DNA of 64,000 bases from the sequence record MK310184. One strand, 5' to 3'. Below the pieces are notes generated by a model, which saw only the letters and a program-made list of their open reading frames with translations, was not told where the DNA came from and made no database searches. This DNA comes from Phage NC-G. Numbering within the stretch: the first letter of the stretch is position 1; the number at the start of each line of letters is the position of its first letter. Positions 13,286 to 13,973 of the stretch are shown piece by piece. A program made the translations under genes and the position numbers.

Positions 13286-13311
13286 ATTATTTCCTAAGTT
13301 AGTTTACTACA

Positions 13312-13319
13312 TATTTATA
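13312..13319 (-). promoter_or_regulatory. T4 late-promoter motif TATAAATA
   Basis: Exact TATAAATA on the minus strand, directly after a terminator hairpin and upstream of the 13285 start. Confidence 0.5.
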
Positions 13320-13320
13320 C

Positions 13321-13348
13321 AAAAAAGGCCCAACCTTTCGGAAGGGCC
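13321..13348 (-). terminator. Terminator hairpin closing the tRNA cluster
   Basis: GGCCCaacctttcggaaGGGCC followed by TTTTTT on the minus strand. Confidence 0.5.
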
Positions 13349-13399
13349 TTTAACCTAGGGTAACCTTGTCGGGGTTCCACCTGCTAGGGCAAGTGTTTG

Positions 13400-13491
13400 T
13401 ACGAAACGCCGGGATTCGAACCCGGTTATTAAGCAGTTGACGCTACTCAATATTTTTAAAAGGCCATATCTCGACCATATCCGAACGTTCC
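13400..13491 (-). ncRNA. tRNA-like RNA with acceptor stem and T-arm but no canonical anticodon arm
   Basis: Perfect T-arm CCGGG-TTCGAAT-CCCGG; 7/7 acceptor pairing between CGGAACG (13491..13485) and CGTTTCG (13407..13401); no D or anticodon stem could be built by hand. Confidence 0.35.
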
Positions 13492-13559
13492 GTCAAAACG
13501 CTACTCGGCTTACGGCAAAGATATTTCCTCGAATCGATAATTCGATGCGCCGTTTCAGC

Positions 13560-13660
13560 TGTGATGTAAGGGAACATTAACAGATCGTAAAGATTTGTTA
13601 ATGCCAGTCCTTACCCAGGGAACATCAGTCCGACGACTTACCGGTAGCGACCCGGTTTCT
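13560..13660 (-). ncRNA. Structured small RNA candidate between the tRNA-like element and tRNA-Arg
   Basis: Nested inverted repeats (CATTAAC/GTTAATG, GTAAGG/CCTTAC, TGATGT/ACATCA, CCGG/CCGG), no ORF; T4 carries two stable small RNAs in its tRNA cluster. Confidence 0.3.
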
Positions 13661-13663
13661 TGT

Positions 13664-13739
13664 TTGGTCGAGACAGTAGGGATCGAACCTACGACCCAGG
13701 ACTTAGAAGGTCCTTGCTCTTCCTTCTGAGCTATGCCTC
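13664..13739 (-). tRNA. tRNA-Arg (anticodon TCT)
   Basis: Hand-folded cloverleaf: acceptor CGAGGCA/TGTCTCG, D-stem GCTC/GAGC, anticodon stem AGGAC/GTCCT with loop CTTCTAA, T-arm GTAGG-TTCGATC-CCTAC, encoded CCA. Confidence 0.8.
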
Positions 13740-13743
13740 GTAT

Positions 13744-13818
13744 TTGGCGGACGTGCATGGATTCGAACCATGGACCAATTGATTAACAGTCAACTGCTCT
13801 ACCACTGAGCTACACATC
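13744..13818 (-). tRNA. tRNA-Asn (anticodon GTT)
   Basis: Hand-folded cloverleaf: acceptor GGATGTG/CACGTCC, D-arm GCTC-AGTGGTA-GAGC, anticodon loop CTGTTAA, T-arm CATGG-TTCGAAT-CCATG, encoded CCA. Confidence 0.8.
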
Positions 13819-13822
13819 CAAA

Positions 13823-13896
13823 TTGGTGACCCTGGGTGGAATCGAACCACCATCCAGCGATTATGAGTCGCTCGCTTGACCGTCCAGCTACAGGGC
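13823..13896 (-). tRNA. tRNA with CAT anticodon (Met, or Ile if lysidine-modified)
   Basis: Hand-folded cloverleaf: acceptor GGCCCTG/CAGGGTC, anticodon stem AGCGA/TCGCT with loop CTCATAA, T-arm GGTGG-TTCGATT-CCACC, encoded CCA; D-stem slightly imperfect. Confidence 0.7.
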
Positions 13897-13973
13897 CAAT
13901 TCTATTATGAAAGGTTCTTTGAGGGAAGAACCTTTGGTAATAGAGGGTACTTATTAATAATAACACATAACTC

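Follow-up and report, generated by a model that had tools for sequence, protein, structure and literature searches.

A probable orthologue of T4 rnaC in a Dhakavirus tRNA cluster: fold, relatives and tRNA-like features

Species 1 RNA has been known in bacteriophage T4 since the 1970s. Its gene, rnaC, occupies positions 70908-71046 of the T4 genome record (NC_000866), where the product is annotated as a 'small, stable RNA'. The T4 RNA (RNAC) accumulates late and has been confirmed by Northern blot (PMC9697503), and according to reviews and recent papers (PMC3014915, PMC9697503, PMC12685909) its function is not known.

Several other described RNAs share parts of its anatomy. These are canonical tRNA (RF00005), including the class II form with a long variable arm, the tRNA-like domain of tmRNA (RF00023), and two non-decoding RNAs, mascRNA (RF01684) and the bacterial Y RNA-like YrlA (RF02553), which carry a tRNA-like module used for RNase P-type processing or mimicry.

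Here, we describe an RNA element in a 64,000-nucleotide stretch of DNA from Phage NC-G (record MK310184), called the window below; all positions are those of the window. A previous sequence-only reading had singled out positions 13400-13491 as a tRNA-like RNA lacking an anticodon arm, located at the downstream end of a tRNA cluster.

Identity and genomic setting of the element

Judging by sequence comparison, the element is very likely the 3′ two-thirds of an orthologue of T4 rnaC, predicted to be a stable, non-decoding RNA of about 138 nt. T4 rnaC (139 nt) aligns end to end with positions 13537-13400 on the minus strand, with 136 identical bases and a single 1-nt gap, and the three differences consist of two substitutions and a U run that is one U shorter in the window. 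An nhmmer comparison gave E = 6e-40, and our covariance model of the RNA (R1) scored 155 bits at this position, the single copy in the window. With the ends taken from the GenBank annotation of T4, the orthologue spans 13400..13537 on the minus strand.

The interval reported previously was correct at one end. Position 13400 is exactly the annotated 3′ end of rnaC, but at the other end the interval starts one base inside the heptamer CGGAACG and the RNA runs 46 nt further 5′, to 13537. Among the identities put forward at the time, a processed stable small RNA with an RNase P-type tRNA-like end is the one that agrees with an orthologue of T4 rnaC, given the annotation of the T4 gene and the Northern blot in T4 (PMC9697503). 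While rnaC is an already known RNA, the comparative model described below (terminal stem, kissing loops, two body types and distribution over genera) may be new.

The source genome belongs to a T4-type phage of the JS98 group of Dhakavirus. Its nearest sequenced relatives differ from T4 at this locus: Escherichia phage MN04 (Dhakavirus, species JS98), the nearest record with 96.8% identity over 13330-13670, leaves the stretch and with it rnaC unannotated, and JS98 lacks rnaC. The same stretch is around 90% identical in Tequatrovirus Aplg8 and T4, where the annotation names rnaD (species 2 RNA) and then rnaC (species 1 RNA).

On the minus strand of the window, three tRNA genes found by both ARAGORN and Rfam, tRNA-Met(CAU) (13824-13897), tRNA-Asn(GUU) (13745-13819) and tRNA-Arg(UCU) (13665-13740), are followed by an orthologue of T4 rnaD (about 13544..13663, placed by alignment to T4 rnaD) and by rnaC. 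A weak YrlA match in the window lies over tRNA-Met and tRNA-Asn and not over rnaC. Just 3′ of rnaC, folding locates a trailer hairpin, CACUUGCCCUAGCAGGUG (13378..13395), which is kept in T4, Aplg8 and JS98. Further downstream, at 13318..13351, AAAGGCCC..GGGCCUUU forms a hairpin that resembles an intrinsic terminator and leads into a U run. A simple terminator scan with a hairpin loop limit of 8 nt passes over this second hairpin, whose loop is longer; in phage Aplg8, a terminator is annotated at the corresponding site. The transcript that carries the tRNAs, rnaD and rnaC probably ends there.

This order is the same as in T4 and Aplg8 (tRNA-Arg, rnaD, rnaC, terminator). The window RNA therefore resembles T4 rnaC over its full-length sequence, in its neighbours on both sides (tRNA-Arg and rnaD upstream, trailer hairpin and terminator downstream) and in its predicted fold. 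The two differ in their genomes, the window being from a Dhakavirus whose tRNAs (Met, Asn, Arg) are not the T4 set.

The JS98 genome provides a natural counterpart. A clean deletion of about 146 nt removes rnaC only, with rnaD, the trailer hairpin and the terminator kept, and model R1 finds no rnaC copy in the JS98 locus examined. Because JS98 lacks exactly rnaC, the RNA is dispensable for growth. In these comparisons between genomes, rnaC behaves as a cassette.

Fold of the RNA and its acceptor-like stem

Homologues were gathered from GenBank phages, IMG/VR and metagenomes. The resulting alignment (A3) contains 26 distinct sequences, and three more sequences with a different body, referred to as type B, bring the set to 29.

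The whole RNA is a four-way junction made of an acceptor-like stem (P1), a long arm (P2-P3), a hairpin (P4) and a T arm. The minimum free energy (MFE) structure of the window RNA (-49.8 kcal/mol, z = -3.98) is not matched in stability by any of 200 shuffles, and it is identical to the RNAalifold consensus of the 26 homologues. With the full model 90% of cells are paired, compared to 36-50% when the partners are slid. Double-sided changes are seen in 26 pairs compared to 13.5 in shuffles, and none of 500 shuffles reaches the observed value, bearing in mind that kinship between the sequences inflates such shuffle statistics.

The sequence between the presumed acceptor strands had been described as impossible to fold by hand. 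We found instead that it forms defined, covarying helices, namely P2, P3 and P4. P2 follows P1 without a linker: its 5′ strand AGGAAAUAUCUUUGCCGU (13512..13529, minus strand) pairs with its 3′ strand AUGGUCGAGAUAUGGCCU (13461..13478, minus strand), as seen by RNAalifold and pair counts, and 7 of its 14 pairs have double-sided changes, with 89% of cells paired. At the tip of the long arm, the single-sequence MFE places hairpin P3 (13481..13508, minus strand), with a 3-nt bulge and the loop UUGACGG; its stem covaries, and this includes the type B body.

P2 is separated from P4 by J2/4, a single-stranded junction UUUAAAAA (13453..13460, minus strand; conserved CCUU..AAAAU) that is unpaired in all predictions and whose columns are nearly invariant. 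P4 (13427..13452, minus strand; RNAalifold and pair counts) is a 10-bp hairpin with the 6-nt loop CGUCAA (13442-13437). Double-sided changes affect 8 of its 10 pairs, and 95% of cells are paired. It lies one base ahead of the T arm, a position that in a tRNA belongs to the anticodon or variable arm. Starting from the internal heptamer, the minus strand reads ...CGGAACG UU CGGAUAUGGUCGAGAUAUGGCC UUUUAAAAA UAUUGAGUAG CGUCAA CUGCUUAAUA A CCGGG UUCGAAU CCCGG CGUUUCG UA.

The T arm reported previously, CCGGG-UUCGAAU-CCCGG, is indeed present at 13425-13409 on the minus strand (motif scan and pair counts). A perfect 5-bp stem enclosing a UUCRANN loop occurs exactly four times in the 64-kb window when both strands are scanned, in the three tRNAs and in rnaC. 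Because these are the only carriers of the motif in the window, the T arm is not a chance occurrence. All of its cells (100%) are paired across the homologues, and two pairs show compensatory changes.

Immediately after the T arm comes the strand CGUUUCG (13408-13402, minus strand), also as reported, followed by U13401 and A13400. This 3′ strand of P1 had been paired with the internal heptamer CGGAACG. Our analysis points to another partner: the acceptor-like stem is probably formed by the 5′ and 3′ termini of the ~138-nt RNA, with the 5′-terminal heptamer CGAUUCG (13530..13536, minus strand; RNAalifold pairing with 13402-13408) as the other strand. The internal heptamer CGGAACG (13492-13486) probably belongs to P3.

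The main evidence for the terminal stem is comparative. Across 26-29 homologues, drawn from about nine genera of Tevenvirinae, there is covariation between the 3′ strand and the 5′-terminal heptamer of the same RNA (CGAUUCG in the window; CGGUUCG or CGGUCCG elsewhere); the covariation of this stem, like that of the kissing loops described below, comes from few independent events, in two clades each. Pair 3:70 of the terminal stem, for example, is A-U in 11 T4-type sequences and G-C in the other 15, and it is broken in none of the 26. The stem combines five Watson-Crick pairs with two central U.U mismatches, which are found in 24 of the 26 sequences. In the Tegunavirus (TG1) clade both U.U become U-A and C-G, leading to a stem with 7 out of 7 pairs (CGGUCCG/CGGACUG). 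The terminal stem is part of the individual MFE structure of 27 of the 29 homologues, and the annotated ends of T4 rnaC fall 1 nt before and 2 nt after it.

Pairing with the internal heptamer would instead define an RNA of about 92 nt, with an acceptor stem CGGAACG/CGUUUCG, an RNase P cut at 13492 and a long irregular insert replacing the D and anticodon arms. We consider this improbable. The 7/7 pairing, with one G-U, is possible in the window and in all T4-type sequences, and it is perfectly Watson-Crick in PG7; in terms of paired cells the internal stem even exceeds the terminal stem (86% vs 73%), the lower figure being due to the two conserved U.U mismatches. ARAGORN uses the internal stem for its tRNA calls in PG7, COW86c and G4500. 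In addition, the only Rfam match in the window that spans the element on the minus strand at E <= 10, to tRNA-Sec, covers 13401-13493, but its score (16.6 bits, E = 2.9) is far below the gathering score of 47.

The internal pairing is, however, not conserved. It shows no double-sided change at all, and its pair 3:70 is broken in 13 of the 26 homologues, being A.C in Karam-, Moon- and Winklervirus. Only 4 of 7 pairs are left in the TG1 clade, type B sequences lack the heptamer, and overall about half of the homologues have a mismatched heptamer or none. Forcing the internal stem on the window RNA gives -35.5 kcal/mol compared to the MFE of -49.8, a cost of ~14 kcal/mol, and the stem has an ensemble probability of zero. 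A heptamer of this kind is also expected at chance level: when the 136 nt upstream are shuffled, a 7/7 partner appears in 24% of cases with G-U allowed and in 4% if no more than one G-U is accepted, and a second one, UGAAACG, is found upstream in rnaD. Finally, the annotation gives the T4 RNA a length of 139 nt and a start 46 nt upstream of that of the shorter form. The case of rnaC illustrates that a 7/7 acceptor pairing found by hand can have the wrong partner. An alanine-identity reading of the G.U in this internal stem was also discarded, since other genera have A.C or G-C at this pair and the stem is itself unsupported.

Returning to the terminal-stem fold, we found that the P3 loop UUGACG (13496-13491) is perfectly complementary to the whole P4 loop CGUCAA (13442-13437). 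The 12 loop positions are invariant in the 26 aligned and three type B sequences save for two changes, and both are compensatory: the Tegunavirus clade has the loops UUGAUG/CAUCAA, the Marfavirus clade UUGGCG/CGCCAA. Pairing between the loops is possible in 100% of cells, and none of 500 shuffles reaches its covariation score, a comparison inflated by the relatedness of the sequences. This result suggests a 6-bp kissing interaction of the P3 and P4 loops, either intramolecular or possibly between two molecules. In such a model, kissing would sequester the only hairpin loop found in an anticodon-like position, so that no anticodon would be presented. We know of no previous description of the P3/P4 kissing interaction or of the two body types.

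Distribution and body types

The region is carried by around 800 phage records. We found rnaC in about nine genera or groups, namely Tequatro-, Dhaka-, Karam-, Moon-, Winkler-, Teguna-, Kanagawa-, Gelderland- and Marfavirus. In Kanagawavirus, Gelderlandvirus, Marfavirus and some Moon- and Karamvirus phages, the RNA has the type B body, in which the P2-P3 sequence is entirely different while the topology is the same, and the internal heptamer is missing.

The genomic setting also varies. In Karam-, Moon-, Winkler- and Gelderlandvirus, rnaC lies between two tRNA genes, a few nt from each, and the spacers between rnaC and its flanking tRNAs in other genera measure 4-7 nt. Tegunavirus phages carry it just upstream of tRNA-Trp. 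Kanagawavirus phages have it on its own, any tRNA being more than 400 nt away.

A scan of metagenomes added more T4-type homologues, including one new variant. The scans covered GenBank phages, IMG/VR, metagenomes and genomes, with T4-like phages of Vibrio, Aeromonas and Acinetobacter outside the scope of model R1, and gave no rnaC homologue beyond the Tevenvirinae of enterobacteria. A number of other candidates were rejected. Two metagenome matches (L030 and L036) were attributed to chance, as were the genome-scan matches in metagenome-assembled genomes of Nitrospiraceae and Gemmatales, both of which model R1 rejects. Seven extra IMG/VR loci obtained with a looser pattern give weak R1 matches of 75-96 nt and are most likely ordinary tRNAs.

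This distribution bears on the possibility that the element is a functionless tRNA pseudogene in decay, with the T arm as a relic in otherwise drifting sequence. The location in or beside tRNA clusters, the lack of an anticodon loop and the dispensability in JS98 would all be expected of such a relic. Nonetheless, about nine genera retain the RNA and every helix shows compensatory changes, its junction and loop sequences are invariant, it is kept in Kanagawavirus away from any tRNA gene, and a stable RNA accumulates in T4. We therefore regard a pseudogene as very improbable.

Relation to tRNA and tmRNA, processing and possible role

The orthologue of T4 rnaC can be compared with known tRNA-like molecules. 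With canonical tRNA it shares the UUCGAAU T arm, a probable 7-bp terminal stem that abuts the T stem, a four-helix junction, a location in tRNA operons with tRNA-like spacing and a predicted dependence on tRNA-processing enzymes. Unlike tRNA, it has neither a D arm nor a 7-nt anticodon loop, and the arm in the D position measures ~70 nt. It also has no linker between the acceptor stem and the next helix, contains two U.U mismatches, and lacks an encoded CCA in most clades: the 3′ tail is UACA in the window, with no CCA encoded, UUCA in the TG1 clade, and UCCA only in the P545/Marfavirus clade. rnaC works like a tRNA only for its top half, and belongs to neither tRNA nor tmRNA.

As the sequence-only reading had anticipated, no tRNA is called at the element: ARAGORN finds only the three upstream tRNAs in the window and no tRNA, tmRNA or tag peptide at rnaC, and Rfam at its gathering score returns the same three tRNAs and nothing at rnaC. 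The Rfam tRNA model has no match at E <= 10 over 13385-13550. When rnaC is searched alone in Rfam, the minus-strand matches are confined to the T hairpin (mascRNA, 14 bits; tmRNA, 10 bits). mascRNA and YrlA are comparable in carrying a tRNA-like module; rnaC has no sequence or model match to them beyond the T hairpin. Rfam holds no family for rnaC itself.

On orthologues, ARAGORN does call tRNAs: tRNA-Met (CAT) in PG7, tRNA-Phe (GAA) in COW86c and tRNA-Lys (TTT) in G4500. GenBank records repeat such calls (KKP_3262, for example, has a tRNA-Phe), which could be taken as evidence of a decoding tRNA of unusual shape, with a very long variable arm or an intron. However, the three anticodons fall on different, non-homologous bases of orthologous sequences, and the window, T4, myPSH1140 and all type B sequences yield no ARAGORN call. 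Because the anticodons differ and are not homologous, we consider the calls to be artefacts of combining the internal heptamer with a real T arm. The Rfam tRNA model gives no match, and the only conserved hairpin loop has 6 nt and is complementary to another loop. A decoding function is thus extremely unlikely, and the ARAGORN results give no support to the earlier suggestions of a degenerate tRNA or of an atypical tRNA with a long variable arm.

Equally slight is the chance of a miniature tmRNA-like molecule, in which the termini would make a tRNA-like domain around an internal functional module. The topology is indeed similar to that of tmRNA: the ends form an acceptor stem, a T arm is kept on the 3′ side, and a long helix leaves the junction in place of an anticodon arm; there is also the weak Rfam match to the T hairpin of tmRNA. 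Against this, the match reaches 10 bits compared to a gathering score of 47, and ARAGORN predicts no tmRNA and no tag peptide. rnaC has no tag ORF and no series of pseudoknots, and with 138 nt, much shorter than tmRNA, it leaves no room for pseudoknots together with an ORF. The G3.U70 pair is not conserved, being A-U or G-C, no CCA is encoded in the window, and single-base indels between homologues argue against a reading frame.

The idea that the element is part of a small protein-coding gene, to which overlapping ORFs of 44-47 aa (13443-13577 on the minus strand and 13437-13580 on the plus strand) and 'hypothetical protein' CDS over rnaC in many records might point, is extremely unlikely, since homologues differ by single-base indels at four alignment columns, the substitutions are compensatory base-pair changes and not synonymous ones, and the T4 product is an RNA.

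As for the biogenesis of the orthologue of T4 rnaC, the layout of the genes suggests a common transcript with rnaD and the three tRNAs (Met, Asn, Arg), ending at the terminator (13351-13318). P1 joins the T stem directly at 13408/13409, providing 7 + 5 bp with no linker, the arrangement of RNase P substrates of the acceptor/T minihelix type, which also have a single-stranded 5′ leader and 3′ tail. In tRNA, the acceptor and T helices stack coaxially. The paired termini and the adjoining T arm of rnaC may likewise offer an acceptor/T minihelix recognised by RNase P and by the tRNA 3′-end enzymes. This anatomy, the ends annotated for T4 rnaC and the way the RNA sits flush between tRNAs in other genera lead us to propose that the host tRNA-maturation machinery cuts rnaC from a polycistronic precursor.

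RNase P would generate the 5′ end by a cut at the 5′ end of the terminal stem; in the classical T4 literature of the 1970s-80s, the 5′ end of species 1 RNA reportedly depends on RNase P. The 3′ end would be produced by trimming, as for T4 tRNAs without an encoded CCA, which are described as a class (PMC11143913). In the mature RNA, the kissing of the P3 and P4 loops would then keep any anticodon from being presented.

What the body of rnaC does can be addressed only tentatively. One possibility, to which we would not give more than limited credence, is that the body is a protein-binding tRNA mimic, acting as decoy or sponge for a host factor that binds or targets tRNA, with the tRNA-like half serving excision and stability only. 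Somewhat more doubtful still is a broader reading in which rnaC represents a distinct structured RNA class of enterobacterial T-even phages, defined by an invariant junction core, an intramolecular 6-bp P3/P4 kissing and interchangeable A and B bodies; here the tRNA-like half would hijack host tRNA maturation and the body would be a decoy or modulator. Putative targets of such a class may include an anticodon-nuclease-type defence or a tRNA-modification or processing enzyme.

The comparative model provides experimental handles on the terminal stem, the four-way junction, the covarying loops and the body types, with JS98 as a natural, precise deletion. A covariance model would also correct the annotation of rnaC, which is at present unannotated, called 'hypothetical protein' or labelled tRNA-Met, tRNA-Lys or tRNA-Phe in around 800 phage genomes.

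Clean loss of rnaC in phage JS98

Comparison of phage JS98 (locus L001, NC_010105, positions 2288-2523) with window positions 13286-13664 reveals a clean deletion of around 146 nt that corresponds exactly to rnaC, the orthologue of the T4 species 1 RNA. Despite this deletion, JS98 retains the neighbouring rnaD, the terminator and, between the 3′ end of rnaC and the terminator, a trailer hairpin (CACUUGCCCUAGCAGGUG, 13378-13395, minus strand). JS98 is a natural rnaC knockout, and the deletion shows a cassette-like behaviour of rnaC. The trailer hairpin is also conserved in T4 and Aplg8 and may be a 3′-processing or protective element.

A second version of the rnaC body

Among the homologous loci collected, we found a second version of rnaC, which we describe as type B (L007, L012, L020, L023-L025 and L040-L044). 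Type B keeps the 5′ end, the junction, the P3 and P4 loops, the T arm and the 3′ strand; the sequence of its P2/P3 stem is unrelated and the predicted topology is the same. It is carried by Kanagawavirus, Gelderlandvirus and Marfavirus phages together with some Moonvirus and Karamvirus phages.

The 3′ tails differ as well. In the Marfavirus clade (L020 and L023-L025), U-CCA is encoded right after the terminal stem. At the same place, UACA is found in T4 and in the window, and UUCA in the TG1 clade (Tegunavirus).

The rnaD neighbour and a sub-threshold match

The orthologue of the T4 species 2 RNA, rnaD, lies between tRNA-Arg and rnaC (13544-13663, minus strand). Compared to T4, both ends are conserved and the middle has diverged. 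Folded by itself, the rnaD sequence reaches -36.8 kcal/mol (z = -2.7). Because the BLAST matches in Karamvirus, Moonvirus, Winklervirus and Tegunavirus span rnaC only and do not reach rnaD, the range of rnaD appears to be limited to T4-type and Dhakavirus phages.

Near its 3′ end, rnaD contains the heptamer UGAAACG (13551-13557, minus strand), a second heptamer able to pair 7/7 with CGUUUCG, the 3′ strand of the rnaC terminal stem, which the sequence-only reading had paired with an internal CGGAACG. This heptamer exemplifies the ambiguity of assigning an acceptor partner by hand. Further upstream, across the tRNA-Met/tRNA-Asn junction (13789-13859, minus strand), Rfam returns a sub-threshold match to YrlA, a family of Y RNA-like RNAs. 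At 28 bits for a gathering score of 69, this match most likely reflects no more than the tRNA-like content of the YrlA model.

Annotation of the rnaC locus

The rnaC locus is labelled inconsistently across GenBank (PG7, SonariX, G4500, G4507, G2133, phage 55, KKP_3262 and many others). Some records call it tRNA-Met, tRNA-Lys or tRNA-Phe, many give it as "hypothetical protein", most leave it unannotated, and only a few name rnaC. Rfam 15 contains no rnaC family. The locus also overlaps two small ORFs, one of 44 aa on the minus strand (13443-13577) and one of 47 aa on the plus strand (13437-13580). These ORFs are probably spurious, since the homologues display single-base indels and compensatory pair changes.

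For Citrobacter phage Moon (L017, NC_027331), the RefSeq tRNA features are found on the strand opposite to the ARAGORN calls, probably a strand error in that record.
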